Sequence record: NZ_AP019754.1
DNA: 64,000 nt
Strand: one strand, 5' to 3'
From: a plasmid
Shown piece after piece: positions 9,389 to 42,987 of the stretch. A program made the position numbers and the translations under genes. The notes under the pieces are model-generated. The model had not been told where the DNA came from. It saw nothing but the letters and a program-made list of their open reading frames with translations, and did not search any database. Each line of letters opens with the position of its first letter. Position 1 is the stretch's first letter.

Positions 9389-11038
9389 TTACAGCGCCAT
9401 ATCGTGCTGCGCCGAGGCTGGGGCTTTTTCGCTGTTAGCAGCGGGCGCTTCAGTTGGCTGATTGCCCATCTGAATAACCGGCGGCTTGGTCAGCTGCAGC
9501 GTTGCTGCCGTTTCATCCCAGACCTGCTGCGTGAGCGCAGGGTTGTCGTTCAGTTTCTGGCCGTAAGCAGGAACGATTTTACGGATTTTTTCCTGCCATT
9601 CTGCTGACTTGAATTGTTCCGGGAACAGTTTCTGCATCACATTGATTGCGATAGGTGCAGCCGTGGATGCGCCAGGCGATGCACCCAGCAATGCGGCAAC
9701 GGTTTTCTGCTGATCGGTCACAATTTCCGTACCCAGTTTCAGCACGCCGCCTTTATCCGCATCCTTTTTGATGATCTGCACGCGCTGACCGGCCTGAATC
9801 AGTTTCCAGTCTTCTTTCTTCGCTTCAGGATAGTACTCTTTCAGCGCGGCAAAACGGTCATCATCGCTCAACATAACCTGACCGATCAGGTATTTGACCA
9901 GGTCAAAGTTATCCATGCCTACGTGGGTCATCGGCATAAAGTTGTGCGTGGTCGTTGTGCTCAGTAAATCAAACAACGAACCATTTTTCAGGAACTTGGT
10001 TGAGAACGTTGCGAAAGGTCCAAACAGCACGACACGCTTACCATCAAGGTAACGGGTATCCAGATGCGGAACCGACATCGGTGGCGCACCCACGGAAGCC
10101 TGACCATACACTTTTGCCAGATGGCGATCGGCAATCGCGCTATTCTCTGTCACCAGGAAGGATCCCCCTACCGGGAAACCTGCGTAATTGTCGGCTTCCG
10201 GAATACCGGTTTTTTGCAGCAGTTTAAGCGCACCGCCACCTGCACCGATAAAGACGTATTTCGCGTCTACGGTACGTTCGCCGCCATTTTTGGCGTCTTT
10301 AATGGTAACGTGCCAGGAATTATCACTGTTACGTTTAAAATCGGTCACTTCCGAAGAGGTTTCCAGGCGGAAATTATCGTTCTTCTTCAGGCTGCCAATT
10401 AACTGACGGGTGATTTCACCATAGTTAACGTCGGTTCCTACTGGCGTCCAGGTAGCAGCCACTTTTTGTTGTGGATCGCGACCTTCCATAACCAGCGGCG
10501 CCCACTGCGCGATCTGCTTGTGATCGGTTGAGAACTTCATGCCCTGGAACAGCACAGTTTTCTGCAGTGCGGCATAGCGTTTCGTCAGATAATCAACGTT
10601 ATCGCCCCAGACAAAGCTCATGTGCGGCGTTGAGTTAATGAACGAACGCGGATTATTTAACACGCCGTCTTTAACCTGAGAGCTCCAGAACTGACGAGAA
10701 ATCATGAAGGCTTCGTTGATTTCCAGCGCTTTGGTCACGTCAATAGAACCGTCTGCACGCTCTGGCGTGTAGTTCAGTTCCATGTTGGCTGAGTGGCCGG
10801 TACCGGCGTTGTTCCAGCCGTTAGAGGATTCCAGCGCTACGCCATCAAGTTTCTCAACCATGATCTGTTTCCAGCCCGGTTGCAGCTCTTCCAGCAGGGT
10901 GCCCAGAGAGGCGCTCATGATACCGCCGCCAATCAGCAGAACATCTGTTTTTTCTGGTGAATTTTCAGCGTGGGTCACTGAAGAAACGAGTAACGCTGCA
11001 AGCGACAGTGCAGGTACAAATTTAGTTGATTTAATCAT
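9389..11038 (-). CDS. mqo: malate:quinone oxidoreductase
   Basis: 549 aa; colinear with E. coli Mqo ([77 protein letters not shown]). Confidence 0.9.
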
Positions 11039-11418: not shown

Positions 11419-12363
11419 TTAGTGGCGAATCAGCGCCAGTTCGTCTTCACTCAGACCAGTCATCTTCATAACCGTCTCACGGTCAAGACCGCTTTGAAGC
11501 ATAGTGCGGGCGATTTTCAGCGTCGCTTCGCGCTCTCCCTCTGAGCGGCCTTCTTCGCGACCCAGTTGGATGCCTTTTTCCATGCCTTTTTCCATGCCTT
11601 TTTGTTCGAGCTGCTGCGCAATGGTCATCAGTACGTCTCCGTGTTGCGGCACGCGATGTGCCAGTTCTCTTACCAATGCTTCGGCGTCGGCGGTTTCTCC
11701 CGCCTGCACGATATAGTGTATCAGTGATACGACCTGTGATGAAGAAAGATAGCCCGCCAGTAAGACCGGGACAAGCTTATCAACCAACTCCGCTAAATCG
11801 CGCTGGTGGATATGTTTCTGAAGCAGGGTTAACGCGGCCATACTGCGGTGCTCTGCAATCTCCTCGTCAGGAATAATCGTGACATCCACCAGCGGAAAAG
11901 CCGTGCTATAGAGCCGGTTGGCCAGCGCAGGATCGGTAAATTCATCCAGCCAGCGCGTGGAATAAGGATAAGGACGACGTTTCCCGGTATAGAACAAGAC
12001 AGGGATGACCAGCGGCAATTTTTTATGGCCGGCTTCAAGGTGGCGCTGCATCGCCGCCACGGCATAACGCAGCAGCCTGAATGCCATGTGCTTATCCGGT
12101 GAGGACTGATGTTCGATCAGGACGTGAACATAGCCGTCATCGCCTTGTGCGGTTTTCAGGCTGTACAACACGTCGCTGAAATATTGGCGAAGATCATCTT
12201 CAACGAAAGATCCGGATTCGAGTTTTAACGTGCTGAGATCGCACACGGCCCGTAATTCCGCAGGCAGGTGCAATTCCATAAAATCACGCGCAATCTCTGT
12301 CTGCGTAAGAAACTGGCGGAAGGTGGCATCGTGAGGCGTGGGTGTACTGTTTTTTTTCTTCAT
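11419..12363 (-). CDS. Rpn-family recombination-promoting nuclease / putative transposase (YhgA-like PD-(D/E)XK)
   Basis: 314 aa. N-terminal conserved block HDATFRQFLTQTEIARDFMELHLP...VHVLIEHQS and a C-terminal low-complexity Gly/Glu/Lys repeat region (KGMEKGMEKGIQLGREEGRSEGEREA) typical of Rpn proteins. Confidence 0.8.
   Translation of the reverse strand: MKKKNSTPTPHDATFRQFLTQTEIARDFMELHLPAELRAVCDLSTLKLESGSFVEDDLRQYFSDVLYSLKTAQGDDGYVHVLIEHQSSPDKHMAFRLLRYAVAAMQRHLEAGHKKLPLVIPVLFYTGKRRPYPYSTRWLDEFTDPALANRLYSTAFPLVDVTIIPDEEIAEHRSMAALTLLQKHIHQRDLAELVDKLVPVLLAGYLSSSQVVSLIHYIVQAGETADAEALVRELAHRVPQHGDVLMTIAQQLEQKGMEKGMEKGIQLGREEGRSEGEREATLKIARTMLQSGLDRETVMKMTGLSEDELALIRH
11570..11605. repeat. 12-bp tandem repeat (atgcctttttcc x3, last copy degenerate) inside the rpn C-terminal coding region
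   Basis: Direct reading of the sequence. It encodes the (K/E)KGME iterations on the minus strand. Confidence 0.6.
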
Positions 12364-12622
12364 CTGTCCTGACTCTGCAAGCGCAACCTGGCGTAATGCT
12401 TACCGGCGCGAAAACGAATATGTCGATTCACACATACATTTTGTCCAGCACTCTCTGATTTACCTGCCATGCTGTCAGTATGATTTACAGGCGTTGTCCG
12501 TCATCATGCCAGATATCCACGGTTAAAAGCACGCTAACCTGCTTAATTTACTGGATTTCAGGCGCAAACTGTACTGGTGCGACGACTTCGCGTATGTTGC
12601 AACGCGTACCTCAACACATCTG

Positions 12623-14263
12623 ATGCTGACTATGAATGACTCCCGGCCACAACGATCGTTAAAGAAGCGCCCAATGAAGCTCAGCACCCTGTCGTCATTG
12701 ATGATGGCGGCCGTGCTGATGACCGTAATATTAAGCGTCCATCTGCTTTATTACATCCAGATCGATAACTTCACCCGTTCGCATTTGAAAGATAAAGCGA
12801 TGGCAGTGGCGCGCACTCTGGCCGACAGCCCGGAGATTCAGCAGGCCCTGACGCGGCCAGACGGAAGCACCATCATTCAACCGATCGCGCAGGCAACGCG
12901 AAAACGTAACGATTTGCTGTTTGTCGTCGTCACCGACATGCGCGGTATTCGCTTCTCTCACCCGAACCCTGAAGTGGTTAATCAGCACTTTGTCGGGAAC
13001 GATATTAAACCGGCGTTACGCGGCAGGGAGAATGTCGCGGTGAATCATGGCGTACTGGTTGAGGCGCTCAGGGTATTTACGCCCGTTTTCAATCAGGCGC
13101 ATCAGCAAATTGGCGTGGTGGCCATTGGGATCTCGGTGAATGATGTCGCGGCGCAAATTGCGAAAAGCCGCTGGAATATTCTCTGGACCGTGCTGTTTGG
13201 CGGGCTGGTTGGCATGCTCGGCATATTAATCTTAGTGAAACGCTTAAAGCACATTTTACTGGGATTAGAGCCGTATGAGATTTCCAGCTTGTTTGAAGAG
13301 CGTCAGGCTATTCTCGATTCGATTAAAGAAGGTGTGATTGCGGTTGACGATCAATCCCGCGTCAGCCTGATTAATCAGGCTGCGCAGCAGCTGTTAAAAG
13401 AAACCACCCGCGAAGCATTTCTGAGCGGTGACCGCGTGCCGGAAAATGCACAGATGCTGACGCATTTACGCGATGCATTGCACGAAGGCAAAGCCTCTTA
13501 TGACGAAGAGCTCAACGTACGCGGCAAAATACTGATCAGTAACACCGTGCCGGTGCGCAGTCGTGACAGTATTATTGGGGCAGTGAGCACATTCAGGGAT
13601 AAAACAGAAATCAGCCAGCTAATGCAGCGTCTCGACGGCATGGTAAACTATGTCGATGCACTGCGGGAGCGATCCCATGAATTCATGAACAAGCTGCATG
13701 TGATTCTTGGTCTGCTACACATGAAAAACTATGCGCAGATGGAAGAGTACATCCTTAAAACGGCCAATAACTATCAAACGGAAATAGGTTCGCTGCTACA
13801 GAAGATTAAGTCGCCTGTTATTGCAGGCTTCCTGTTGAGCAAAATTAACCGCGTAACAGATGAAGGCCACCAGCTGATCCTGAGCGAAGCCAGCTATCTG
13901 CCCGACAACGGCAGTGAACAGCAAATCGCAGCACTTATCACGGTACTGGGCAATCTGATTGAAAACGCGCTGGAAGCGCTCGATCCGGAAATGGAAGGGG
14001 AAATCCATGTCATGCTGCATTATCAAAACGGCTGGCTGTCGTGCGAGGTCAGTGACGATGGCCCCGGTATTCCTGCCGATCAGCTCGCCGCCATTTTCGA
14101 ACGCGGCGTCTCTACCAAAGGTGAAGATCGTGGCGTTGGACTGTTTTTACTCAAGCAACAAACGGAAAGTCTGGGCGGTAACGTCAGCGTGGAATCAGAA
14201 CCGGGCGTTTATACTCAGTTTCTGGTTCAGCTTCCGTGGGAAAGAGGGAATATTAGCGAATGA
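12623..14263 (+). CDS. dcuS: C4-dicarboxylate sensor histidine kinase
   Basis: 546 aa; colinear with E. coli DcuS (KRPMKLST, ALAVARTLADSPEI, LLFVVVTDM, SRW.I.W.VLFG, STFRDKTE, HEFMNKLHVILGLLH, GNLIENALEAL). Alternative start at 12632. Confidence 0.85.
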   Translation: MLTMNDSRPQRSLKKRPMKLSTLSSLMMAAVLMTVILSVHLLYYIQIDNFTRSHLKDKAMAVARTLADSPEIQQALTRPDGSTIIQPIAQATRKRNDLLFVVVTDMRGIRFSHPNPEVVNQHFVGNDIKPALRGRENVAVNHGVLVEALRVFTPVFNQAHQQIGVVAIGISVNDVAAQIAKSRWNILWTVLFGGLVGMLGILILVKRLKHILLGLEPYEISSLFEERQAILDSIKEGVIAVDDQSRVSLINQAAQQLLKETTREAFLSGDRVPENAQMLTHLRDALHEGKASYDEELNVRGKILISNTVPVRSRDSIIGAVSTFRDKTEISQLMQRLDGMVNYVDALRERSHEFMNKLHVILGLLHMKNYAQMEEYILKTANNYQTEIGSLLQKIKSPVIAGFLLSKINRVTDEGHQLILSEASYLPDNGSEQQIAALITVLGNLIENALEALDPEMEGEIHVMLHYQNGWLSCEVSDDGPGIPADQLAAIFERGVSTKGEDRGVGLFLLKQQTESLGGNVSVESEPGVYTQFLVQLPWERGNISE

Positions 14264-14979
14264 TCAATGTGTTAGTCGTAGACGATGATGCCATGGTGGC
14301 CGAACTGAACCGATGCTATATCGGGCAGATTGACGGTTTTACCTGCTGTGGTACCGCGTCCACCTTACAGCAAGCCAAAGAGCGCCTGTTGCAGACAGAT
14401 CCGCCCGTTGATCTTATTTTGCTGGATATCTATATGCAGCAGGAAAACGGACTGGACCTGTTGCCAGAGCTGCGCAGTGCGGGGCGTCCGGTTGACGTCA
14501 TTATCATCTCATCCGCTGCCGATGCGGCGACCATTAAAACGTCGCTGAACTACGGCGTTGTGGATTATCTGATAAAACCCTTTCAGTTTTCCCGCTTTGA
14601 AGAGGCGCTGACCGGATGGCGTCAGAAAAAACGGCTGATGGATAATCATCAGTTTTATCAGCAGGCCGATGTGGATCAACTGCTGCATGGTAATCAGGCC
14701 AATGCCAGCGAGACAAAACGCCTGCCAAAAGGGCTGACGCCGCAGACATTACGTACGCTGTGTTTGTGGATTGATGCGCACCCCGGTACCGAGTTTTCTA
14801 CCGATGAGCTGGCCACTGAGGTGAATATTTCTCGCGTATCGTGCCGTAAATACCTGATTTGGCTGGCGCAGAGCAATATTTTGTTTACCAGTATTCACTA
14901 CGGCGTCACGGGACGTCCGGTGTATCGCTATCGTCTGCAGCCGGAGTACCACACGCTTTTACGCCAGTACTGTCAATGA
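14260..14979 (+). CDS. dcuR: C4-dicarboxylate response regulator
   Basis: 239 aa; receiver domain (VLVVDDD...DLILLDIYM) plus a DcuR/CitB-type C-terminal HTH. Overlaps the dcuS stop (ATGA). Confidence 0.85.
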   Translation: MINVLVVDDDAMVAELNRCYIGQIDGFTCCGTASTLQQAKERLLQTDPPVDLILLDIYMQQENGLDLLPELRSAGRPVDVIIISSAADAATIKTSLNYGVVDYLIKPFQFSRFEEALTGWRQKKRLMDNHQFYQQADVDQLLHGNQANASETKRLPKGLTPQTLRTLCLWIDAHPGTEFSTDELATEVNISRVSCRKYLIWLAQSNILFTSIHYGVTGRPVYRYRLQPEYHTLLRQYCQ

Positions 14980-15941
14980 CGGAGCTGAAAGCAATTATCC
15001 AGTAAGGTGAAGTGAAAGTGACGTTGTGACGAGCAAATGACCTGCTTGTCGCGCGTCACGAAGACAGCCTCAATATCAGGATGGCTTTTCAGATACGCAA
15101 TGCCCTTCTCAACGCCCATGCCATAAATCAGCGTGGTATAAATATCACCGTCGATCGACTGATCGGAAATAATGGTCACGCTATACAGCTCATTATCCAG
15201 CGGATAGCCGGTATGTCTGTCAAGAATATGGTGATAACAGACGCCATCCTGTTCGAAGTAACGTTCGTAGATCCCGGACGTCACCACGGATTTGTTCACA
15301 ACATGAATGACACCAATCAGGGCATCCTGGGCCGCAAAAGGGGTTTTCAGACCGATTGCCCATCCCTGCTGCGGCGCATCACGAGGTGCGCCTAACGTTT
15401 GCACGTTGCCGCCAAGGTTAATCAACGCGCTATCGACGCCCTGCTGCTGCAAAAAAGCCTGCACCCGATCGGCAATGTAGCCTTTGGCGATGGCACCCAG
15501 ATCAATTTCCATCCCCGTTTTGTTCAGAAACACCGAACGCGTGTCCGCATCAAGCTGGACATTTTCAGGACAGGTTAAGGGCAACGTTGCCAGTATTGTC
15601 TCCCGCGCAGGAACGCAGTCACCCTGAAAGCCAATTTTCCAGCATTTCACCAGCGGGCCAATCGTGAGATTAAAACTGCTGTCTGGTAACAGACTGACGT
15701 TAAGTGCGCGCTGAATTAAATCAAAGACGGGTTGACTGACGCTCACGGGATGCTGACCGGCAGCATGGTTAATCGCCATCACTTCGGAGTGCGTCCGGTT
15801 AACCGTCAGCAGATTTTCGTACTGTTTGATTAATCTGAAAGCCTGTGCCGCAAGCTTTTCGTCGTGCTCGAATAGCTTAAGCAGAATGGGCGATCCCATC
15901 AGGACGGCGGAATAAGCACAGACTTGCGACTCGGTTTGCAT
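14973..15941 (-). CDS. apbE: FAD:protein FMN transferase (ApbE family), cytoplasmic type (no signal peptide)
   Basis: The ORF track gives ..15983. The in-frame ATG at 15941 gives MQTESQVC.... ApbE family motifs are present (AIAKGY, LINLGGN, SVVTSGIYERYF, HHILDRHTGYP). It lies immediately upstream of, and is co-oriented with, the FMN_bind-containing reductase. Confidence 0.8.
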   Translation of the reverse strand: MQTESQVCAYSAVLMGSPILLKLFEHDEKLAAQAFRLIKQYENLLTVNRTHSEVMAINHAAGQHPVSVSQPVFDLIQRALNVSLLPDSSFNLTIGPLVKCWKIGFQGDCVPARETILATLPLTCPENVQLDADTRSVFLNKTGMEIDLGAIAKGYIADRVQAFLQQQGVDSALINLGGNVQTLGAPRDAPQQGWAIGLKTPFAAQDALIGVIHVVNKSVVTSGIYERYFEQDGVCYHHILDRHTGYPLDNELYSVTIISDQSIDGDIYTTLIYGMGVEKGIAYLKSHPDIEAVFVTRDKQVICSSQRHFHFTLLDNCFQLRH

Positions 15942-16007
15942 AGGCGACACCGCTCTGGGAGGGAATAAAACCGGCACCTGCATGCGGGCAGATGCCGGCG
16001 GTGACGA

Positions 16008-18785
16008 CTAGCGTTTGGCTAACGCCGCAGCGTTGGCACCTGCCAGAATACCAAAGATGATGATGTCCGCAACCGCGTTACCACCGATACGGTTTGCACC
16101 GTGGATCCCGCCGACAACTTCACCGCACGCCCAGGCACCGTGGATTGGCTGTTTATGGCTGTCGAGCACGGCTGTGGTGGTATCAATGGTGACGCCACCC
16201 ATTGTGTGGTGAACACCGGGCGCGATGCGGATCGCATGGAAAGGGCCCTCGTTCAACGGATGACGCAGCGCGGTCTGACGATCGAAGTCCGCGTCTTTCT
16301 GCTGTATCACAAAGCCGTTATAGCGATGCAGCGTTTCTTCCAGCGTCCGGTGTTCCATATTCAGTTTCACCGCCAGCTCGCCTACGGTTGGCGCGCTGAT
16401 AACAAATCCTTTGGCAATATACTCATCGGCCGCTTTGTTATTCATACGAACCTGCTCATCGAAGACAATCCAGGCGCTTTTCTCCGGCAGTGCAATAATC
16501 TGCGCAGAAACTTTATCGCGGGTTTCCATCTCATTACAGAAGCGCTGTCCCGCCTGGCTGACCAGAATGGCCCCACCGCCACGAATAGACTCTGACACCA
16601 GATAGGATGTGGTTTGCTCAACCGTTGGGTGAATCTGAATCTCGCCCATATCCACGGTATCCGCACCAATTTTTTGCAGCATCGCAATGCCTGCGCCAGT
16701 GGCCCCTTTATGGTTGGTGGTGACAAAGCCATCCAGCTCAGGGCGGTATTTCACCACCATTTCCCGGTTGGCGCTGAAGCCACCTGTTGCGACGATGACG
16801 CTTTTCGCATTGAGAATACGGCTGTCGTTGTATTCATCCACCACTTTGACACCGCTGACCGCGCCGTTGTCGAACAAAATTTCCTCTACGGCGGTTTCAA
16901 GCAGGACGTCAATATTACGGTTATTGATATTTTTCACTAACCCACTGATCAGGAAGCCGCCAACGGCCGAGCGGTCGGCAGGACGGTGCGTACGATCAAT
17001 GCTCATGCCGCCGGTGATGGTGATGTCATTCAGTTCGATACCGTGATCGGCCAGCCAGTCAATGGCTTCAGGCGCCAAATCAACGAACTCGCGCAGCAGG
17101 GTCGGGTTGTTTTTGTACTTACCGCCCTTGAGCGTTTCCTCATAAAACAGTTCTTTGCTGTCTTCGATACCTTTCAGTTTCTGAAAACGCGTCTCGGCGG
17201 CGTTCATCCCTACGGATGCTTTGATCGTGTTACCGCCGATAGTGGGCATTTTCTCAATGACAACCACTTTGGCACCTTCATCATGCGCCTGAATGGCCGC
17301 GGCCAGACCGGCACCGCCGCTTCCCACGACCACCACATCATACTGTTGCGGTGCATTGGGATTACCGCCCTCTTCAATCACATGGGCTTTATTTGAAGTG
17401 GTCATTGCACGCGATACTGCTTTTTTCAGGGCCTCACTCTGCGTGGTCGCGCCGGTGATAGCATCAACGTGTGGGCTGTTAGCCACCAGAATACGATTAC
17501 GCAGGCTTTCGAAGGTGGTAGTGAAGTCAACGTCCAGCGTGTCGTCCGGTACCAGCGAGATATCTGTAATACGGTCGGTATCCAGCGTGACGTTGATCTT
17601 CAGCTTAAGCGCTTCGGCCTCAACTTTTTCCTGATAAACACCGGCTTTGTATTTGCGTCCCGACTCACTCATATCGCGAATCATGGCGTCAACCAGCGAG
17701 AAACGCCACAGCGGTTCAGGGATCAATAACGCTTCACGCTGGTTACTGTCGATGTAAAGTTCAAGATGCTCATTATTGATAATGCGATCTGTCCAGTCGG
17801 GATAAGCGATGCAGGCTTTACCAATCGCAACCAGGTCATAGCCTTTTTCCAGCGCTTTTTCCGCATCTTCTTTGTTTACCACACCGCCAACGCCAATGAC
17901 CGGCACTTTCGCCAGCGTTGGGGACCGCATGTTAATAAACTTCTCAATCAGCGGGGTTGGATCGGTGGTATCAACGATAGAGGGGCGCATAAGCTGCCCA
18001 ACAGAAAAGTGGACATAATCGAGCCCGCGTGCCGCCAGCTTTTCCAGTAGGTACAGGGTGTCATCGAAACGGATGCCCGGGACTTCAAGTTCTTCAGGGG
18101 AAAAACGATAGCCGATGATGAACCCGTTATGTGCAAATCGCGCGGCCATTTTATGGGTAATTTCGAGGACTTCCAGCGGAAAGCGGGCACGGTTATCGCG
18201 ACTGCCGCCCCATTTGTCATCGCGTTGATTGGAATTGGGTGAGTAAAATTGCTGTATCAGATAGGTGTTTGCGCCATGAATTTCAACGCCATCAAATCCG
18301 GCTTTAATGGCGCGGTTAACGGCGTCACCAAATTTAGTGATCATGGTATCCACTTCTTCTGCCGTTAGCGCGCGCGGCGTCGTGGCACCCTCACGAGGTG
18401 CGGCAATGGCGCTTGGGGCGACAGGGGTTTTCCCCCCTATCAGCTCAGGCTCAACCATGCGGCCGCCGTGATAGATCTGCAAAATCGCTGTCGAACCTTC
18501 CTGCTTGATGGCGTCAGCAATTCGCTTTAGGCCCGGAATTTTGTTGTCGCTGTCGATGGCTATAGCCCCTGGAAACGCGGGACCTTTTGGATCGATAAAA
18601 CAGCATTCAACAATGACCGTTCCGATGCTGCCAGCACGGGCACGATAATATTCAACCAGTTCACTGGTGACCGTTCCGTCATAAAAACCGGTGCAGGTTG
18701 TCATGGGTGCCATGATCAGGCGATTTTTTAAAACCGCGCCACGCGGCAACGTAATGGAATTGAGAATGGGGGTGAGTGTATTCAT
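16008..18785 (-). CDS. three-domain soluble flavoprotein reductase (N-terminal OYE-like NADH:flavin oxidoreductase, central FMN_bind, C-terminal FAD_binding_2 fumarate-reductase/flavocytochrome-c-type domain); candidate NADH:fumarate (2-enoate) reductase
   Basis: The ORF track starts at TTG 18800; ATG 18785 (MNTLTPILNS) has GGAG 9 nt upstream. OYE motifs: LKNRLIMAPMTT, GFDGVEIHGANTYLIQQF. FMN_bind domain carries the flavinylation motif DAITGATTQS. Dinucleotide-binding YDVVVVGSGGAGLAAA starts the FAD domain, with later catalytic HHTMGG / GEVVGGIHGANRIGGNA motifs. No signal peptide or heme motif. Confidence 0.8.
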   Translation of the reverse strand: MNTLTPILNSITLPRGAVLKNRLIMAPMTTCTGFYDGTVTSELVEYYRARAGSIGTVIVECCFIDPKGPAFPGAIAIDSDNKIPGLKRIADAIKQEGSTAILQIYHGGRMVEPELIGGKTPVAPSAIAAPREGATTPRALTAEEVDTMITKFGDAVNRAIKAGFDGVEIHGANTYLIQQFYSPNSNQRDDKWGGSRDNRARFPLEVLEITHKMAARFAHNGFIIGYRFSPEELEVPGIRFDDTLYLLEKLAARGLDYVHFSVGQLMRPSIVDTTDPTPLIEKFINMRSPTLAKVPVIGVGGVVNKEDAEKALEKGYDLVAIGKACIAYPDWTDRIINNEHLELYIDSNQREALLIPEPLWRFSLVDAMIRDMSESGRKYKAGVYQEKVEAEALKLKINVTLDTDRITDISLVPDDTLDVDFTTTFESLRNRILVANSPHVDAITGATTQSEALKKAVSRAMTTSNKAHVIEEGGNPNAPQQYDVVVVGSGGAGLAAAIQAHDEGAKVVVIEKMPTIGGNTIKASVGMNAAETRFQKLKGIEDSKELFYEETLKGGKYKNNPTLLREFVDLAPEAIDWLADHGIELNDITITGGMSIDRTHRPADRSAVGGFLISGLVKNINNRNIDVLLETAVEEILFDNGAVSGVKVVDEYNDSRILNAKSVIVATGGFSANREMVVKYRPELDGFVTTNHKGATGAGIAMLQKIGADTVDMGEIQIHPTVEQTTSYLVSESIRGGGAILVSQAGQRFCNEMETRDKVSAQIIALPEKSAWIVFDEQVRMNNKAADEYIAKGFVISAPTVGELAVKLNMEHRTLEETLHRYNGFVIQQKDADFDRQTALRHPLNEGPFHAIRIAPGVHHTMGGVTIDTTTAVLDSHKQPIHGAWACGEVVGGIHGANRIGGNAVADIIIFGILAGANAAALAKR

Positions 18786-19176
18786 TGCGATTAACTCCAA
18801 AAATTCAAAACTCGGGAATTCTGTGCGGACGCTTTTTTATTAATAAATAAGTGGTCCGATGTCATAACGCTAATATACCAATTATTTTAGTTTCATAAGT
18901 TTTAATTTTAGTTTTTTAACTTTTAAATATTTCAAGTTTACTATTTGATTAAAGCAGGATCGTGATGTATATTTATTGTTAATCAATAGTTAAGGAAAAT
19001 CAATGAGAATTGTGAAATTAAAAATACTACAATAAAAACAATAGCTTAAACATATAATTCTGTTGCTCACCCTTCCCAAAGTGAAGCTTAAAACCCTTAT
19101 TTTTGCAGTTTAAATATTTGGCTCTAGGTTATTAATAATTTAGTTGTTAAAATTTTAATCGTATAATTTAACTTAC

Positions 19177-19190
19177 TTGATCTGGATCAA
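19177..19190. promoter_or_regulatory. perfect FNR/CRP-family half-site pair TTGAT-N4-ATCAA in the 575-bp AT-rich divergent control region
   Basis: ttgatctggatcaa read directly from the sequence. Lies about 190 bp upstream of the DASS transporter start. Anaerobic dicarboxylate genes are classically FNR-dependent. Confidence 0.4.
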
Positions 19191-19375
19191 TATTCTGTTT
19201 TTAATTAATCGCATCATATCCACATGATCTTTTATAAATGCCTCCATCGCACCAGAGGACAAGTTAAAGAATTATAAGGCATCACGGTTTATTCTCATAA
19301 TTTAGAATAAAGAAGTCCCTATGGACGAATTGCCGGGACGCTGCTCGAATTATCCTTAACACGTAGAAAAATACT

Positions 19376-20884
19376 ATGAAAACACTCTCAAACGTCAAAG
19401 AGCCTCCAAAAGCAGCCCCTGCAACTGCGGGCAAAAATAAAGCACTTATGCTCCTTTTGCCGGTTTTGGTCGCCGTCCTGTTGTTACTCGTCCCCGTGCC
19501 AGCGGGTCTTGAACCTTATGCATGGCACTTCTTTGCCATCTTCGTCGGCGTCATCGTCGGGCTGATTTTTGAACCCTTGCCCGGCGCAGTGATTGGTCTG
19601 ACCGGCGTCGTCGTCATCGCCTTGTTCAGCCAGTTCCTGCTCTTTAGCCCGGCAGAACTGGCCAACCCCAAATTTAAAGTGGCGAGTGAGTCATTTAAAT
19701 GGGCGGTCAGCGGCTTCGGTAACTCAACCGTCTGGCTGATTTTTGGCGCATTCATGTTCGCTGCGGGCTATGACAAGACCCAGTTCGGCCGCCGTCTGGC
19801 ATTGATTCTGGTGAAATACCTGGGCCGCCGGAGTTTAACCCTCGGCTATGCCATCACCTTCGCGGATTTGCTGCTGGCCCCTTTCACCCCGTCGAACACG
19901 GCCCGCAGTGGCGGTACCATTTATCCCATCATTGCCAATCTGCCGCCGCTTTATGGTTCAAAACCCAATGACCCCAGCGCGCGTAAAATTGGATCTTATC
20001 TGATGTGGGTTGCTATCACCGCCGCCTGTATCACCAGCTCCATGTTCCTGTCCGCCCTGGCCCCCAACCTGCTCGCCCTTGCGCTGGTCAAAAGCGTCAT
20101 TGGTTTTGATATCTCCTGGGGAATGTGGTTCCTTGCCTTTTTGCCACTGGGCCTGCTGTTGATTCTGACCATGCCGCTGCTGGCGTACTGGTTCTATCCG
20201 CCTGAAGTGAAGGTGAATGATGAAGTGCCTCGCTGGGCGATTGCTGAGCTGGAAAAACTGGGTAAGTTGACCCGTAATGAAATCCTGTTACTGGTGTTTG
20301 TTGTCTGTGCGCTACTGATGTGGATTTTTGCCACTGCCTGGATCGAACCGGCCATGGCCGCTCTGCTGGTGATTATCCTGATGCTGTGGACCGGGGTACT
20401 TAACTGGAACGACATCACTAGCAATAAAGCCGCCTGGAACACCTTTGCCTGGTTTGCCACACTGGTTGCGCTGGCCGATGGTTTAGCCCGCGTAGGCTTT
20501 ATCGCCTGGCTGGGCAAAGAAGGGGGAATGTTACTGCAGGGATACGATCCTCAAGTGTCGGCTGTGGTGCTGTTGATTGCCTTCTTCCTGCTGCACTACC
20601 TGTTTGCCAGTACCACCGCGCATACGACCGCCTTGCTGCCTGCGATGTTAACCATTGCCGCTTCCATTCCAGGTATTAACATGCCCGTGTTTTGCCTGAT
20701 GCTGTGTACTTCACTGGGTGTGATGGGGATTATCACCCCTTACGGTACCGGCCCAAGCCCTATTTATTACGGCAGCGGCTATTTACCTACGAAAGATTAC
20801 TGGCGTCTGGGCACCATCTTTGGTGCTATCTTCCTGATTGCTATGATGCTCATCGCCTACCCCTGGATGGTGTGGATGTTCTGA
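19376..20884 (+). CDS. DASS-family anion:anion antiporter (TtdT/CitT-like tartrate/C4-dicarboxylate:succinate exchanger)
   Basis: 502 aa polytopic. Colinear with E. coli TtdT over most of its length (VPAGLE, FAVFTGVIVGLI.EP.PGAV, WAVSGFGNS, GRRLALILVK, FTPSNTARSGG.IYPII.NLPPLY, PYGTGPSPIYYGSGYLP..DYWRLG). Confidence 0.8.
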   Translation: MKTLSNVKEPPKAAPATAGKNKALMLLLPVLVAVLLLLVPVPAGLEPYAWHFFAIFVGVIVGLIFEPLPGAVIGLTGVVVIALFSQFLLFSPAELANPKFKVASESFKWAVSGFGNSTVWLIFGAFMFAAGYDKTQFGRRLALILVKYLGRRSLTLGYAITFADLLLAPFTPSNTARSGGTIYPIIANLPPLYGSKPNDPSARKIGSYLMWVAITAACITSSMFLSALAPNLLALALVKSVIGFDISWGMWFLAFLPLGLLLILTMPLLAYWFYPPEVKVNDEVPRWAIAELEKLGKLTRNEILLLVFVVCALLMWIFATAWIEPAMAALLVIILMLWTGVLNWNDITSNKAAWNTFAWFATLVALADGLARVGFIAWLGKEGGMLLQGYDPQVSAVVLLIAFFLLHYLFASTTAHTTALLPAMLTIAASIPGINMPVFCLMLCTSLGVMGIITPYGTGPSPIYYGSGYLPTKDYWRLGTIFGAIFLIAMMLIAYPWMVWMF

Positions 20885-21040
20885 TTGTGTCAAATGCATT
20901 TCGACGCGTCATACGATAACATGCCAACACTTGCCAGCCTGTGCTTATGGCTGGCAAGCATAATAAACAACTCATTCGCCTTTGATGTTGCTCCTGTCAG
21001 CCTGCGTTAACGGAGCCAGCACGTCATTAAGTGAGATACT

Positions 21041-22687
21041 ATGTCGAACAAACCTTTTTTTTATCAGAACCCCTTTCCTCTTGCCCACGAGGACACCGAA
21101 TACTATTTGCTTAGCCCCGACCACGTTTCCGTGGCTGAGTTTGACGGCCAGTCCATATTAAAAGTGGACCCACAGGCATTGACGCTGCTGGCCCAGCAGG
21201 CCTTTCATGATGCGTCTTTTATGTTGCGCCCGGCCCACCAGCAGCAGGTTGCGTCAATTCTGGCTGACCCTGAAGCCAGCGATAACGATAAATACGTCGC
21301 ACTGCAGTTCTTACGAAACTCCGAGATCGCCGCTAAAGGTGTCTTGCCAACCTGCCAGGACACCGGCACTGCCATCATCATGGGCAAAAAAGGCCAGCGA
21401 GTGTGGACCGGTGGCGGTGACGAAGCCGCGCTGTCGCAAGGTATCTACAATACCTATATTGAAGATAACCTGCGTTACTCCCAAAACGCCGCGCTGGATA
21501 TGTATAAAGAAGTGAACACCGGTACCAATCTTCCGGCGCAGATTGACCTCTACAGCGTGGACGGTGATGAATACAAATTCCTTTGCATCGCCAAAGGCGG
21601 CGGTTCCGCCAATAAAACCTATTTGTATCAGGAAACCAAGGCACTGCTCAGCCCGGGCAAGCTGAAAAATTATCTGGTCGATAAAATGCGTACGCTGGGT
21701 ACTGCGGCTTGTCCTCCCTACCATATCGCCTTTGTCATTGGCGGCACCTCTGCCGAAAGTACGCTGAAAACCGTCAAGCTGGCATCGACTCACTACTATG
21801 ATGGTTTACCTACAGAAGGTAACGAGCATGGCCAGGCGTTCCGTGATGTTCAGCTTGAGCAGGAGTTACTGGAAGCGGCGCAGCAGCTTGGGCTGGGAGC
21901 ACAGTTCGGCGGCAAATATTTTGCACATGATATCCGCGTAGTGCGTTTGCCTCGCCACGGCGCATCCTGCCCGGTTGGCATGGGGGTTTCGTGCTCCGCT
22001 GACCGCAATATCAAAGCTAAAATCAACCGCGAGGGTATCTGGATTGAAAAACTGGAAGCCAATCCTGGGCGTTATATCCCTGAAGCACTGCGCAAGCAAG
22101 GTGAAGGCGAAGTGGTTCACATCGACCTGAATCGCCCGATGAATGACATCCTTGCCCAGCTTTCGGAATACCCGGTTTCGACACGTTTGTCCCTGACCGG
22201 GACCATCATCGTTGCGCGTGACATTGCCCATGCCAAACTAAAAGAACGCATTGATAACGGCGAAGGCTTGCCGCAGTACATTAAAGATCACCCTGTCTAT
22301 TATGCGGGTCCGGCCAAAACACCGGAGGGTTACGCATCTGGCTCACTGGGCCCGACGACGGCAGGCCGCATGGATTCGTATGTCGATCTTCTGCAGGCGA
22401 ATGGCGGCAGCAAAGTCATGCTGGCAAAAGGTAACCGTAGCCAGCAGGTCACCGATGCCTGCCACAAGCACGGCGGTTTTTACTTAGGCAGCATTGGTGG
22501 TCCGGCTGCCGTTCTGGCGCAGCAGAGCATCAAGAGTCTGGAGTGCGTGGAGTATGCCGAACTGGGGATGGAAGCTATCTGGAAAATAGAGGTCGAAAAT
22601 TTCCCGGCCTTTATCCTGGTGGATGACAAAGGAAATGACTTCTTCCAGCATATCGAACGTGAGCACTGCTCGCGCTGTGTGAAATAA
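21041..22687 (+). CDS. fumB: class I (Fe-S) fumarate hydratase
   Basis: 548 aa, about 85-90% colinear identity to E. coli FumA/FumB by eye. Called fumB from the dcuSR and anaerobic context; fumA cannot be excluded from sequence alone. Confidence 0.85.
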
Positions 22688-22710
22688 ACACGCGGCGGTA
22701 AACATGATGA

Positions 22711-22740
22711 AACGGCCCCGTTACAGGGGCCGTTTTTTTA
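22711..22740. terminator. rho-independent terminator after fumB (bidirectional with the convergent SDR gene)
   Basis: aacGGCCCCgttacaGGGGCCgttttttt. Confidence 0.7.
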
Positions 22741-23394
22741 TCATCGTTGCAGACGGAGCATGGCGTCGCTTATGCTTTCGTCGCCTTCGGTCAGCTCAAT
22801 AATTTTGCGCGAAATTTGCGGTGTTTCGACCAGAGCCACCAGCGTGGCGGCCACATCCTCACGCGGGACCGACCCGTAAGGAATCGCAAAATCTGCACGT
22901 ACGGTGCCGCGGCCCGCCACATTGGTTAGCGTACCGGGACGAAGAATTACCCAGTCGAGTTGGCTTTCGACCAGGCGAACATCAGCCAGCCGCTTCACGC
23001 GCATGTAATTTTCGAAACCTTCAGATGTCTCTTCGCCACGTGCGGCATCCGGGAAGACTGAAACCAGCAAAAACCGCTTCACACCGGCCTTTTCGGCTGC
23101 GGCAACCGCCAGGGATAACCCCTCGCCGTCAATGGCGTTGGTCAGCTCAATACCCGCGCCTCCCGCCCCAGCGCTAAAAATCACCACATCGTGGCCGGCC
23201 ATTTTCTGCGCCAGTTGATCCACGGTCAGCTTCTGGAGATCCCCCGCCACGGGAACCGCTCCGGCGGATTTAAGTGCTTCGGCCTGCTCAGATTTACGAT
23301 GCAGTGCAGAAACCGCATGTTGCTTAGCGCTGAGCTGTTTCGTCAGATGAGAGCCAACGTTGCCCGCCGCGCCAATAATAAAACATGTCGTCAT
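22741..23394 (-). CDS. NAD(P)H-binding (NmrA/YwnB-like) short-chain oxidoreductase
   Basis: 217 aa; N-terminal IIGAAGNVGSHL Rossmann motif. Confidence 0.7.
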   Translation of the reverse strand: MTTCFIIGAAGNVGSHLTKQLSAKQHAVSALHRKSEQAEALKSAGAVPVAGDLQKLTVDQLAQKMAGHDVVIFSAGAGGAGIELTNAIDGEGLSLAVAAAEKAGVKRFLLVSVFPDAARGEETSEGFENYMRVKRLADVRLVESQLDWVILRPGTLTNVAGRGTVRADFAIPYGSVPREDVAATLVALVETPQISRKIIELTEGDESISDAMLRLQR

Positions 23395-31312: not shown

Positions 31313-31680
31313 CTGATACTCCTGTGTTATCGAGAGGTTATCCTGGGACGAGAGCGAAATTCATCCAATCCACAATGAAACAGTATATGTCTCAAAACCC
31401 GACAGAGAAGTGCGACAGGAGCCCACAGAAAAGAGGAGAAGAGAAATAAAAACCGCAGTTCGCCAGAGGCGACAGGCCTTCAGGATCGGCCTGTGAAGGG
31501 GAATAAGGCTTATTTTACTGTCATCTTTCAGGGTGAAATCGCCAGTATTTAGCGCCCGATTGCCGGTAGCAAACCGGTCTGACGCCTTTTTTTTATTTAC
31601 ACAAAAGGCCTGATACTTGATCTGAATCACAAAAATCCGCATGATCTGCATCAAACATTTAAACAGGTATTGAGGCAAAA

Positions 31681-31854
31681 ATGACACTTTATCAACACAT
31701 GCTGGTCTTCTATGGCATTGTTGCCTCGGTAGCGGCACTCATCACCTTCTTTATCGCCAAAGACAAGCTCAGCATCAAACTGTTGAGTGCTTTTCTGGTT
31801 GGTGCAACCTGGCCTATGAGTTTTCCGGTAGCATTAATGTTCGCGCTATTTTGA
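31681..31854 (+). CDS. GhoT/OrtT-family (DUF2566) small membrane toxin, 57 aa, orphan (no ghoS-like gene nearby)
   Basis: Not in the ORF track (under 60 aa). GAGG RBS 8 nt upstream. Translation MTLYQHMLVFYGIVASVAALITFFIAKDKLSIKLLSAFLVGATWPMSFPVALMFALF aligns end to end with E. coli GhoT (MALFSKILIFYVIGVNISFVIIWFISHEKTHIRLLSAFLVGITWPMSLPVALLFSLF; the E. coli sequence is from memory), including the LLSAFLVG.TWPMS.PVAL.F.LF C-terminal signature. Two TM helices. Confidence 0.7.
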   Translation: MTLYQHMLVFYGIVASVAALITFFIAKDKLSIKLLSAFLVGATWPMSFPVALMFALF

Positions 31855-39387: not shown

Positions 39388-39630
39388 CCCCTGGCAACCC
39401 GGTAAAGGTACCGCACGGTCTGCCAATCCGACGGAGGTTTATGAATTTTCCACCTTTTCCACAAGCTCAACTAGTATTAACGATGTGGATTTAGCAAAAA
39501 AAACCTGTAACCCTAAATGTAAAATAACGGGTAAGCCTGCCAACCATGTTATGGCAGATTAAGCGTCTTTTTGAAGGGCACCGCATCTTTCGCGTTGCCG
39601 TAAATGTATCCGTTTATAAGGACAGCCCGA

Positions 39631-40539
39631 ATGACGGTCTGCGCAAAAAAACACGTTCATCTCACTCGCGATGCTGCGGAGCAGTTACTGGCTGATATTG
39701 ATCGACGCCTTGATCAGTTATTGCCCGTGGAGGGAGAACGGGATGTTGTGGGTGCCGCGATGCGTGAAGGTGCGCTGGCACCGGGAAAACGTATTCGCCC
39801 CATGTTGCTGTTGCTGACCGCCCGCGATCTGGGCTGCGCTGTCAGCCATGACGGATTACTGGATTTGGCCTGTGCGGTGGAAATGGTCCACGCGGCTTCG
39901 CTGATCCTTGACGATATGCCCTGCATGGACGATGCGAAGCTGCGGCGCGGACGCCCCACCATTCATTCTCATTACGGAGAGCATGTGGCAATACTGGCGG
40001 CGGTTGCCTTGCTGAGTAAAGCCTTTGGCGTAATTGCCGATGCAGATGGCCTCACGCCGCTGGCAAAAAATCGGGCGGTTTCTGAACTGTCAAACGCCAT
40101 CGGCATGCAAGGATTGGTTCAGGGTCAGTTCAAGGACCTGTCTGAAGGGGATAAGCCGCGCAGCGCTGAAGCTATTTTGATGACGAATCACTTTAAAACC
40201 AGCACGCTGTTTTGTGCCTCCATGCAGATGGCCTCGATTGTTGCGAATGCCTCCAGCGAAGCGCGTGATTGCCTGCATCGTTTTTCACTTGATCTTGGTC
40301 AGGCATTTCAACTGCTGGACGATTTGACCGATGGCATGACCGACACCGGTAAGGATAGCAATCAGGACGCCGGTAAATCGACGCTGGTCAATCTGTTAGG
40401 CCCGAGGGCGGTTGAAGAACGTCTGAGACAACATCTTCATCTTGCCAGTGAGCATCTCTCTGCGGCCTGCCAACACGGGCACGCCACTCAACATTTTATT
40501 CAGGCCTGGTTTGACAAAAAACTCGCTGCCGTCAGTTAA
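39631..40539 (+). CDS. crtE: geranylgeranyl diphosphate synthase
   Basis: ATG 39631 (MTVCAKKHVHL...) gives 302 aa. FARM DDMPCMDD and SARM QLLDDLTD aspartate-rich motifs. First gene of the crt operon. Confidence 0.9.
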   Translation: MTVCAKKHVHLTRDAAEQLLADIDRRLDQLLPVEGERDVVGAAMREGALAPGKRIRPMLLLLTARDLGCAVSHDGLLDLACAVEMVHAASLILDDMPCMDDAKLRRGRPTIHSHYGEHVAILAAVALLSKAFGVIADADGLTPLAKNRAVSELSNAIGMQGLVQGQFKDLSEGDKPRSAEAILMTNHFKTSTLFCASMQMASIVANASSEARDCLHRFSLDLGQAFQLLDDLTDGMTDTGKDSNQDAGKSTLVNLLGPRAVEERLRQHLHLASEHLSAACQHGHATQHFIQAWFDKKLAAVS

Positions 40540-40548
40540 GGATGCTGC

Positions 40549-41844
40549 ATGAGCCATTTCGCGGCGATCGCACCGCCTTTTTACAGCCATGTTCGCGCAT
40601 TACAGAATCTCGCTCAGGAACTGGTCGCGCGCGGTCATCGGGTGACCTTTATTCAGCAATACGATATTAAACACTTGATCGATAGCGAAACCATTGGATT
40701 TCATTCCGTCGGGACAGACAGCCATCCCCCCGGCGCGTTAACGCGCGTGCTACACCTGGCGGCTCATCCTCTGGGGCCGTCAATGCTGAAGCTCATCAAT
40801 GAAATGGCGCGCACCACCGATATGCTGTGCCGCGAACTCCCCCAGGCATTTAACGATCTGGCGATAGATGGCGTCATTGTTGATCAAATGGAACCGGCAG
40901 GCGCGCTCGTTGCTGAAGCACTGGGACTGCCGTTTATCTCTGTCGCCTGCGCGCTGCCTCTCAATCGTGAACCGGATATGCCCCTGGCGGTTATGCCTTT
41001 CGAATACGGGACCAGCGACGCGGCTCGCGAACGTTATGCTGCCAGTGAAAAAATTTATGACTGGCTAATGCGTCGTCATGACCGCGTCATTGCCGAACAC
41101 AGCCACAGAATGGGCTTAGCCCCCCGGCAAAAGCTCCACCAGTGTTTTTCGCCACTGGCGCAAATCAGCCAGCTTGTTCCTGAACTGGATTTTCCCCGCA
41201 AAGCGTTACCGGCTTGTTTTCATGCCGTCGGGCCTCTGCGCGAAACGCACGCACCGTCAACGTCTTCATCCCGTTATTTTACATCCTCAGAAAAACCCCG
41301 GATTTTCGCCTCGCTGGGCACGCTTCAGGGGCATCGTTATGGGCTGTTTAAAACGATAGTGAAAGCCTGTGAAGAAATTGACGGTCAGCTCCTGTTAGCT
41401 CACTGTGGTCGTCTTACAGACTCTCAGAGTGAAGAACTGTCGCGAAGCCGTCATACACAGGTGGTGGATTTTGCCGATCAGTCAGCCGCGCTGTCACAGG
41501 CGCAGCTGGCGATCACCCACGGCGGCATGAATACGGTACTGGACGCGATTAATTACCGGACGCCCCTTTTAGCGCTTCCACTGGCCTTTGATCAGCCCGG
41601 CGTCGCGTCACGCATCGTTTATCACGGCATCGGCAAGCGTGCTTCCCGCTTTACCACCAGCCATGCTTTGGCTCGTCAGATGCGTTCATTGCTGACCAAC
41701 GTCGACTTTCAGCAGCGCATGGCGAAGATCCAGACCGCCCTTCGTTTGGCAGGGGGCACCATGGCCGCTGCCGATATCATTGAGCAGGTTATGCGCACCG
41801 GTCAGCCTGTCTTAAGTGGGAGCGGCTATGCAACCGCATTATGA
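40549..41844 (+). CDS. crtX: zeaxanthin glucosyltransferase (GT1 family)
   Basis: 431 aa; colinear with Pantoea CrtX (HFAAIAPPF.SHVRALQNLAQELVARGHRVTF, C-terminal PSPG-like GGMNTVLDAI...PLLALPLAFDQPGVASR). Confidence 0.9.
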   Translation: MSHFAAIAPPFYSHVRALQNLAQELVARGHRVTFIQQYDIKHLIDSETIGFHSVGTDSHPPGALTRVLHLAAHPLGPSMLKLINEMARTTDMLCRELPQAFNDLAIDGVIVDQMEPAGALVAEALGLPFISVACALPLNREPDMPLAVMPFEYGTSDAARERYAASEKIYDWLMRRHDRVIAEHSHRMGLAPRQKLHQCFSPLAQISQLVPELDFPRKALPACFHAVGPLRETHAPSTSSSRYFTSSEKPRIFASLGTLQGHRYGLFKTIVKACEEIDGQLLLAHCGRLTDSQSEELSRSRHTQVVDFADQSAALSQAQLAITHGGMNTVLDAINYRTPLLALPLAFDQPGVASRIVYHGIGKRASRFTTSHALARQMRSLLTNVDFQQRMAKIQTALRLAGGTMAAADIIEQVMRTGQPVLSGSGYATAL

Positions 41845-42976
41845 TCTGATTCTCGTGGGGGCTGGACTCGCGAATGGCCTTATCGCCCTGCGTCTTCAGC
41901 AGCAGCAACCTGATATGCGTATTTTGCTTATCGACGCCGCACCCCAGGCGGGCGGGAATCATACGTGGTCATTTCACCACGATGATTTGACTGAGAGCCA
42001 ACATCGTTGGATAGCTTCGCTGGTGGTTCATCACTGGCCCGACTATCAGGTACGCTTTCCCACACGCCGTCGTAAGCTGAACAGCGGCTACTTCTGTATT
42101 ACTTCTCAGCGTTTCGCTGAGGTTTTACAGCGACAGTTTGGCCCGCACTTGTGGATGGATACCGCGGTCGCAGAGGTTAATGCGGAATCTGTTCGGTTGA
42201 AAAAGGGTCAGGTTATCGGTGCCCGCGCGGTGATTGACGGGCGGGGTTATGCGGCAAACTCAGCACTGAGCGTGGGCTTCCAGGCGTTTATTGGCCAGGA
42301 ATGGCGATTGAGCCACCCGCATGGTTTATCGTCTCCCATTATCATGGATGCCACGGTCGATCAGCAAAATGGTTATCGCTTCGTGTACAGCCTGCCGCTC
42401 TCGCCGACCAGATTGTTAATTGAAGACACGCACTATATCGATAATGCGACATTAGATCCTGAACGCGCGCGGCAAAATATTTGCGACTATGCCGCGCAAC
42501 AGGGTTGGCAGCTTCAGACATTGCTGCGTGAAGAACAGGGCGCCTTACCCATCACCCTGTCGGGCAATGCCGAGGCATTCTGGCAGCAGCGCCCCCTGGC
42601 CTGTAGTGGATTACGTGCCGGTCTGTTCCATCCTACCACCGGCTATTCACTGCCGCTGGCGGTTGCCGTGGCCGACCGCCTGAGCGCACTTGATGTCTTT
42701 ACGTCGGCCTCAATTCACCAGGCTATTAGGCATTTTGCCCGCGAGCGCTGGCAGCAGCAGCGCTTTTTCCGCATGCTGAATCGCATGCTGTTTTTAGCCG
42801 GACCCGCCGATTCACGCTGGCGGGTTATGCAGCGTTTTTATGGTTTACCTGAAGATTTAATTGCCCGTTTTTATGCGGGAAAACTCACGCTGACCGATCG
42901 GCTACGTATTCTGAGCGGCAAGCCGCCTGTTCCGGTATTAGCAGCATTGCAAGCCATTATGACGACTCATCGTTAA
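41828..42976 (+). CDS. crtY: lycopene beta-cyclase
   Basis: The ORF track starts at GTG 41816; ATG 41828 (MQPHYDLILVGAGLANGLIA) has GGAG 5 nt upstream and gives 382 aa. FAD-binding dinucleotide fold. Overlaps the crtX 3' end. Confidence 0.9.
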   Translation: MQPHYDLILVGAGLANGLIALRLQQQQPDMRILLIDAAPQAGGNHTWSFHHDDLTESQHRWIASLVVHHWPDYQVRFPTRRRKLNSGYFCITSQRFAEVLQRQFGPHLWMDTAVAEVNAESVRLKKGQVIGARAVIDGRGYAANSALSVGFQAFIGQEWRLSHPHGLSSPIIMDATVDQQNGYRFVYSLPLSPTRLLIEDTHYIDNATLDPERARQNICDYAAQQGWQLQTLLREEQGALPITLSGNAEAFWQQRPLACSGLRAGLFHPTTGYSLPLAVAVADRLSALDVFTSASIHQAIRHFARERWQQQRFFRMLNRMLFLAGPADSRWRVMQRFYGLPEDLIARFYAGKLTLTDRLRILSGKPPVPVLAALQAIMTTHR

Positions 42977-42987
42977 AGAGCGACTAC

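Follow-up and report, generated by a model that had tools for sequence, protein, structure and literature searches.

A probable soluble NADH:fumarate oxidoreductase and its leaderless ApbE partner on a Pantoea ananatis megaplasmid

A stretch of 64,000 nucleotides of the plasmid sequence record NZ_AP019754.1, hereafter called the window, carries on its minus strand two adjacent genes, designated frd and apbE, which encode a predicted flavoprotein of 925 residues and a putative FAD:protein FMN transferase. The frd product probably acts in the cytoplasm as a soluble NADH:fumarate oxidoreductase, like FRD of Klebsiella pneumoniae, and by all the sequence criteria tested the frd-apbE pair appears to belong with this K. 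pneumoniae enzyme and its partner ApbE2. Observed in the sequence are the domains and motifs of the two products, the conservation of their residues, the lack of export signals, the order of the genes, and a box for FNR together with its conservation. The 3.8-kb region including both genes showed 99.9% identity to plasmid pPANA10 of Pantoea ananatis LMG 5342 and to other P. ananatis megaplasmids (270-340 kb), and the frd product was 100% identical to its counterpart on pPANA1 of strain LMG 2665; the window is judged to be P. ananatis megaplasmid DNA of the LPP-1 type.

Domain organization and active site of the frd product

The frd gene was located at 16008..18785 on the minus strand (stop codon included), as supported by the open reading frame, a ribosome-binding site, Pfam matches, and a RefSeq coding sequence of the same coordinates. 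The reading frame itself extends over 16008..18800, and the start was set at the ATG at 18785, with GGAG 9 nt upstream, giving the 925 residues of the RefSeq product (WP_014333233.1, labelled "flavocytochrome c"). All the peptides quoted in the first-pass annotation, which was made from the sequence alone, were found in the translation of this frame, and the domain order proposed there, Old Yellow Enzyme (OYE), FMN_bind, then FAD_binding_2, was upheld by Pfam search. The OYE-like NADH:flavin domain (residues 18-338; 17772..18734, minus strand) matched PF00724 (Oxidored_FMN) with E 7e-75 and retained the catalytic residues His170, Asn173, and Tyr175, all invariant in 241 orthologues (sequences of at least 75% identity to the frd product). 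It matched OYE proteins of the PDB with E 1e-47 to 1e-36, and its fold matched those of SYE4 and 3L5A with target-normalised template-modelling (TM) scores of 0.85-0.87. The FMN_bind domain (residues 395-461; 17403..17603, minus strand) was identified with PF04205 (E 2e-6; score 28.8 bits, cutoff 22), and the predicted fumarate-reducing FAD_binding_2 domain (residues 483-905; 16071..17339, minus strand) with a Pfam E of 4.6e-81. The structure was modelled with AlphaFold2 on an alignment of 133 diverse sequences, with a predicted local distance difference test score (pLDDT) of 88.7 and a predicted TM score (pTM) of 0.64; an earlier AlphaFold model (pLDDT 62), based on a shallow alignment of sequences with at least 73% identity, was discarded. 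Among the PDB matches obtained by sequence and fold searches, no structure of a three-domain enzyme was included.

No CxxCH heme motif was detected in the frd product, which contains six cysteines in total, and the highest hydropathy over 19 residues was 1.97 at position 904, within a C-terminal helix of the FAD domain. Sequence scanning identified no signal peptide, Tat motif, lipobox, or transmembrane segment, and since the OYE fold begins at about residue 5, no space is left for a signal peptide. Taken together, the lack of CxxCH, the low hydropathy, and the early start of the OYE fold indicate that the frd product is neither a cytochrome nor an exported protein, and the motif and hydropathy scans thus agree with the earlier statement that heme site, signal peptide, and membrane anchor are all missing. 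The name "flavocytochrome c" originates from the NCBIfam equivalog model NF005064, which scored 620 bits (cutoff, 542) but aligned with residues 475-924 only.

The FAD domain was 46.7% identical over 443 residues to Fcc3 of Shewanella frigidimarina (1QJD), and the model of this domain superposed on 1QJD and 1D4C with root-mean-square deviations of 1.8-2.3 Å (Foldseek on the AlphaFold2 model). As discriminators between substrates, Bertsova et al. described, in Fcc3 numbering, Motif I (R402, H504, R544) for the C4 carboxylate, Motif II (H365, T377) for the C1 carboxylate, which decides the specificity, and Motif III (E378, R381, R402) for the proton path. The scoring of the FAD domain against Fcc3, proposed in the first-pass annotation, was carried out, and none of the catalytic Arg and His residues was found to be lost: H365 of Fcc3 corresponds to H719, E378 to E732, R381 to R735, R402 to R756, H504 to H859, H505 to H860, and R544 to R899. 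The sole change among the eight active-site positions was the conservative replacement of T377 by S731, in which the hydroxyl is kept. All eight positions, with Ser731 fixed, were invariant in the 241 orthologues. In many proteins of the HxERRHHR type, either Ser or Thr occupies this site of Motif II, and Ser731 is therefore not a sign of another specificity. Fcc3 differs from the frd product in being periplasmic and in receiving electrons through an N-terminal tetraheme domain, in place of which the Pantoea protein carries the OYE and FMN_bind domains, with NADH as the predicted donor. The substrate had at first been considered not predictable from the domain order in this family, but Motifs I-III give the full fumarate signature, with Thr to Ser as the single change, making the substrate more predictable than had been assumed.

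A search against 1.84 billion representatives of 50%-identity clusters, of which the best 150 were examined, gave a single close representative, P0161, with 84% identity, followed by others with 43% or less. Five of these 150 contained all three domains in the same order as in frd, with the signatures HSERRHHR (P0161), MTGPRHHR (P0163), EKKDYATS, YKSGNATS, and HAGGGMLR; P0161 was the only other protein in the set to combine OYE, FMN_bind, and FAD domains with the fumarate signature. The K. pneumoniae FRD (KPK_2907; UniProt B5XRB0), which was reported together with its ApbE2 (Bertsova et al. 2014 BBA; 2020 FEMS Microbiol Lett), is described as having the same order of three domains and conserving all the motif residues. 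Judged from this description of its architecture and signature, the enzyme should fall in the cluster of P0161 and most likely does. By the published description, the Klebsiella and Pantoea proteins share the covalent-FMN motif, the fumarate-binding and proton-relay residues, the lack of heme, leader, and anchor, and a dedicated leaderless ApbE. The Pantoea system differs in its Erwiniaceae host, its megaplasmid location, and Ser for Thr in Motif II.

The cluster of P0163 is that of Vibrio harveyi, i.e., of the NADH:acrylate reductase ARD (P0DW92; cluster P0163/P0311), which has the same domain order and covalent FMN attached in an ApbE-dependent manner. ARD, however, is only 43% identical to the frd product, is longer (1004 against 925 residues), carries MTGPRHHR in place of HSERRHHR, and operates in the context of acrylate detoxification, whereas frd is surrounded by dcuSR and a fumarase gene. 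The acrylate reductase signature, Met for the Motif II His with loss of the Glu/Arg relay, was absent from the frd product, which has H719, E732, and R735; an acrylate reductase of the ARD type was rejected on this ground. Another comparison made in the first-pass annotation, with Crd of Vibrio ruber as an enzyme of the same architecture, had to be withdrawn, for this enzyme has a different NADH:flavin domain (PF03358) and includes a further subunit.

Covalent flavinylation and the ApbE partner

The flavinylation motif recognized by ApbE is D-x-x-[S/T]-G-A-[S/T], and its final residue accepts the FMN (PMC12052999). The sequence D441-A-I-T-G-A-T447 (17445..17465, minus strand) is the sole match in the frd product; it fits this published definition, as does the threonine pointed out at the outset, and Thr447 (codon 17445-17447) is the predicted site of the FMN phosphoester. 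The D, G, A, and T447 of the motif were invariant in the 241 orthologues.

The apbE gene, for a putative leaderless, cytoplasmic-type FAD:protein FMN transferase of 322 residues, was placed directly downstream of frd at 14973..15941 on the minus strand (PF02424, E 3.3e-81, full length). The frame as first read was longer (14973..15983, 336 residues), but a comparison of 54 orthologous loci showed conservation of Met15 of that frame, at 15941, and none of the ATG at 15983, and RefSeq also starts at 15941; the start was accordingly revised to 15941 as the most likely one. The conserved N-terminus reads M-x-x-[DE]-x-x-V-Y-A-Y-S-A-V-L-M-G-S-P, and about nine residues precede the core. The protein aligned with PDB 7ESA (E 9e-68) from residue 24 of the 336-residue frame, the alignment including the blocks AIAKG, LGGN, TSGxYER, HHIxD, and DGD. 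Based on this fold and on the conserved FAD-binding and catalytic blocks, the apbE product is predicted to be an ApbE flavin transferase. Sequence scanning revealed no hydrophobic leader or lipobox with either start, and the co-oriented ApbE beside frd is thus without a signal peptide, as the first-pass annotation had it. For the soluble FRD of K. pneumoniae, a cytoplasmic, leaderless ApbE was reported to be essential for flavinylation (PMC12052999).

Between the stop codon of frd and the start of apbE, a GC-rich hairpin with a 12-bp stem followed by the T-run TTTATT was identified (15970..15999, minus strand), and the non-conserved ATG at 15983 falls inside it. Terminator-like sites of this kind were not enriched over shuffled sequences in the region; the hairpin is possibly a partial terminator or attenuator that would reduce the expression of apbE relative to that of frd.

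Gene neighbourhood, distribution, and the intergenic control region

The genes on both sides of the frd-apbE pair are related to C4-dicarboxylates, in agreement with the context suggested in the first-pass annotation. On one side, dcuS (12623..14263, plus strand) encodes a C4-dicarboxylate sensor histidine kinase (NCBIfam DcuS/MalK family, 787 bits) with 63% identity to E. coli DcuS, and dcuR (14260..14979, plus strand) encodes its response regulator (448 bits with the NCBIfam equivalog model for DcuR; cutoff, 262) with 74% identity to E. coli DcuR. The sensor retains the residues aligned to R107, H110, and R147 of E. coli DcuS, the periplasmic ligand-binding Arg/His/Arg set. By these similarities, the two proteins are considered true orthologues of E. 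coli DcuS and DcuR. The genes dcuR and apbE are convergent and their 3' ends overlap by 7 bp (14973-14979), so that no terminator fits between them. On the other side, a transporter of the DASS family (dass; 19376..20884, plus strand; Pfam Na_sulph_symp, E 3e-156) has as its best solved relatives LaINDY (6WU1) and the chloroplast DiT1/DiT2, all dicarboxylate exchangers, and is itself predicted to be a C4-dicarboxylate:succinate exchanger. It is followed by a gene for a class I [4Fe-4S] fumarate hydratase of the FumA/FumB type (21041..22687, plus strand; NCBIfam, 1200 bits), the product of which is 87% identical to E. coli FumB. The arrangement parallels the E. coli order dcuS-dcuR-dcuB-fumB, with the DASS gene in the place of dcuB and with frd-apbE inserted between dcuR and the transporter gene. 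A DNA-level search of 5,426 complete E. coli genomes identified no frd; E. coli uses the membrane-bound FrdABCD.

In Pantoea loci, the module is bordered on its dcuSR side by the gene for malate:quinone oxidoreductase, mqo (9389-11038, minus strand), placing a second malate-handling enzyme next to the module; in the window the two are separated by a gene for an Rpn-family recombination-promoting nuclease (11419-12363). Farther away, a carotenoid cluster was found at 39604-45858, whose plus strand carries the genes for polyprenyl synthetase, glycosyltransferase, crtY, phytoene desaturase, and crtB and whose minus strand carries a gene of the sterol desaturase family resembling crtZ; such a cluster is typical of LPP-1 and the P. 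ananatis megaplasmids.

In a GTDB scan of the best 80 species-level loci, all with at least 75% identity, the divergent dass-frd pair was found in nearly all, and frd, dass, apbE, and dcuR were present together in 46, among them loci of Pantoea, Erwinia, Izhakiella, Rahnella, and Ewingella. The homologue lists add, among the matches listed, Cedecea, Mangrovibacter, Hafnia, Brenneria, Dickeya, and Musicola. The system is thus conserved in Erwiniaceae, Yersiniaceae, Pectobacteriaceae, Hafniaceae, and some Enterobacteriaceae. The architecture had been presented as one known from few characterised enzymes; with respect to the gene system itself, spread over five families, the impression of rarity does not hold.

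Rahnella and Ewingella contain two copies of frd (loci L019, L022, L024, L025, L028-L030, L032, L045, L047, L052, L061, and L066 against L075-L081). Copy 1, with 85-87% identity to the protein of the window, lies within the Erwinia clade, sharing 91% identity with E. rhapontici. Its neighbours are limited to dass and LysR-type genes, and a stretch of 8 kb around it contains neither apbE nor dcuSR. Copy 2, with about 76% identity, belongs to a full dcuSR-apbE-frd-dass-fumA module. This pattern suggests that the additional, Erwinia-like copy may have been acquired horizontally and may depend on the apbE of the other copy.

Between frd and the DASS-fumarase operon lies an AT-rich divergent control region of 590 bp (18786..19375). 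It contains a perfect FNR consensus box, TTGATCTGGATCAA, at 19177..19190, which lies upstream of dass at about 186-199 bp from its start codon. The box TTGATCTGGATCAA is the sole perfect FNR match in the 64 kb, where 0.08 would be expected by chance. A perfect box was present at a like position, 161-215 bp from dass, in 49 of the 74 orthologous intergenic regions, in which the half-sites are invariant and the N4 spacer is variable. A profile over 46 orthologous regions revealed in addition a conserved block, TAATCGCATCAT, at 19206-19218 flanking the FNR box, and TAATCGCATCAT is situated where the -10 element of a class II promoter for dass would lie. No Rfam element was detected within 12000-23000. 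The Klebsiella FRD is reported to be induced only in the absence of oxygen, and the FNR box of Pantoea fits such an induction. RNA-seq of P. ananatis LMG 2665T includes a "flavocytochrome c", possibly the frd product, under "Transport" that was mildly down-regulated in quorum-sensing comparisons (PMC5867869). Elsewhere in the window, two FNR-like sites with one mismatch each, TTGATCTGAATCAC and ATGATCTGCATCAA, were found 24 bp apart at 31617-31654, just upstream of an open reading frame for a toxin of the GhoT/OrtT family (around 31678-31851).

Alternative substrates and the predicted role of the system

Several observations weigh against the assignment of frd as an FNR-controlled fumarate reductase of the Klebsiella type. 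The perfect FNR box is about 398 bp from frd and is better placed for the promoter of DASS; another FNR-like sequence, which is common in Erwinia and Rahnella and lies upstream of frd at a distance of about 215 bp, carries two mismatches in the window; and the frd promoter was not located by the promoter and terminator scan, in which promoter-like matches stayed at the level of chance. Klebsiella was absent from three homologue lists (best 120 each) obtained with the frd product, a Cedecea-like orthologue, and the Rahnella paralogue of 76% identity as queries. The interdomain geometry of the AlphaFold2 model is uncertain, as indicated by the pTM of 0.64, and no conclusion was drawn on the interdomain flavin distances. 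In the active site, not only is the Motif II Thr replaced by Ser, but two methionines of the Fcc3 pocket are also changed (M236 to T591 and M375 to L729), and some shift in substrate range relative to Fcc3 may result from these three replacements.

A bolder view of the same system is that the Erwiniaceae/Yersiniaceae clade, with its fixed Ser731, Thr591, and Leu729, is distinct from the Klebsiella FRD in substrate range or kinetics, and that the plasmid-borne dcuSR-apbE-frd-DASS-fumB set forms a self-contained, horizontally mobile "malate fermentation" cassette. As a whole, this view is rather unlikely. If the three replacements relative to 1QJD widened the pocket, another unsaturated dicarboxylate such as mesaconate or a substituted fumarate might be the better substrate, and Ser731 is indeed fixed in 241 of 241 orthologues; this is nevertheless regarded as improbable, because Ser and Thr alternate freely among proteins otherwise bearing the full fumarate signature, the adjoining enzyme is a FumB orthologue that would produce fumarate itself, and the sensor retains the residues aligned to the Arg/His/Arg set of E. 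coli DcuS. It is quite improbable as well that the main substrate is urocanate or a monocarboxylic 2-enoate (acrylate, methacrylate, crotonate, or cinnamate), on the pattern of V. harveyi ARD, V. ruber Crd, or UrdA, with the C4-dicarboxylate neighbours being there by coincidence. Such a substrate would agree with the domain order shared with ARD, with the strong match to urocanate reductase 6T85 (E 1e-82; 36-37% identity), and with the opinion of authors on the family that its specificity is hard to predict, but the frd product has the Motif II His and the Glu/Arg relay where ARD has Met, Gly, and Pro, the two groups of carboxylate-binding residues are complete and do not vary among the orthologues, the identity to ARD is low, and the linkage to dcuSR, fumarase, and the dicarboxylate exchanger is tight and conserved. 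A periplasmic flavocytochrome c fumarate reductase with an exported ApbE, as implied by the RefSeq name and the above-cutoff score of NF005064, deserves practically no credence, since that match is confined to the C-terminal part, residues 5-360 form an OYE domain instead of a tetraheme domain, CxxCH motifs are lacking with only six cysteines at hand, and neither protein bears a signal peptide, Tat motif, or lipobox; with no heme motifs and no leader, a periplasmic flavocytochrome c3 is refuted at the sequence level.

For the preferred reading, a soluble NADH:fumarate oxidoreductase, the homologous enzymes of Klebsiella and Shewanella allow inferences on the cofactors, the electron donor, and the substrate, on how the transporter works as an exchanger, and on how the genes are regulated. 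NADH would reduce the FMN held non-covalently in the OYE-like domain at the N-terminus, from which electrons would move to the FMN bound as a phosphoester on Thr447 of the FMN_bind domain, this FMN being attached in the cytoplasm by the adjacent leaderless ApbE with FAD as the donor. The electrons would then pass to the non-covalent FAD of the C-terminal domain, and FAD would transfer a hydride to fumarate held by H719 and S731 at the C1 carboxylate and by R756, H859, and R899 at the C4 carboxylate, while R756 would protonate the substrate through the E732-R735 relay to yield succinate. External C4-dicarboxylates would be detected by DcuS/DcuR and anoxia by FNR, the DASS exchanger would take up malate or fumarate in exchange for succinate, and the FumB-like fumarase would convert malate to fumarate. 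The net outcome would be the conversion of malate or fumarate to succinate as an NADH sink under the control of DcuSR and FNR, with NADH re-oxidised without a membrane complex.

The enzyme type, the covalent FMN, and the cytoplasmic ApbE were all described between 2014 and 2020, and the Pantoea gene is widespread and ordinary; because of these descriptions, the assignment will be no surprise to specialists. It does correct a widespread mis-annotation, hundreds of proteins of Enterobacterales being called "flavocytochrome c" with no cytochrome in them, and it places a predicted soluble fumarate reductase using NADH, together with a predicted DASS exchanger in the position of E. coli DcuB, in the DcuSR regulon neighbourhood of Erwiniaceae. 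The well-behaved orthologue family could aid the structural study of interdomain flavin-to-flavin transfer. P. ananatis is an industrial host, and the system bears on redox balance and on the production of succinate by this organism, and perhaps also on its growth in plant tissue rich in malate. If the module were indeed a mobile cassette, it would provide plant-associated bacteria with an NADH sink that does not depend on membranes, in plant tissue where malate is abundant and oxygen scarce.

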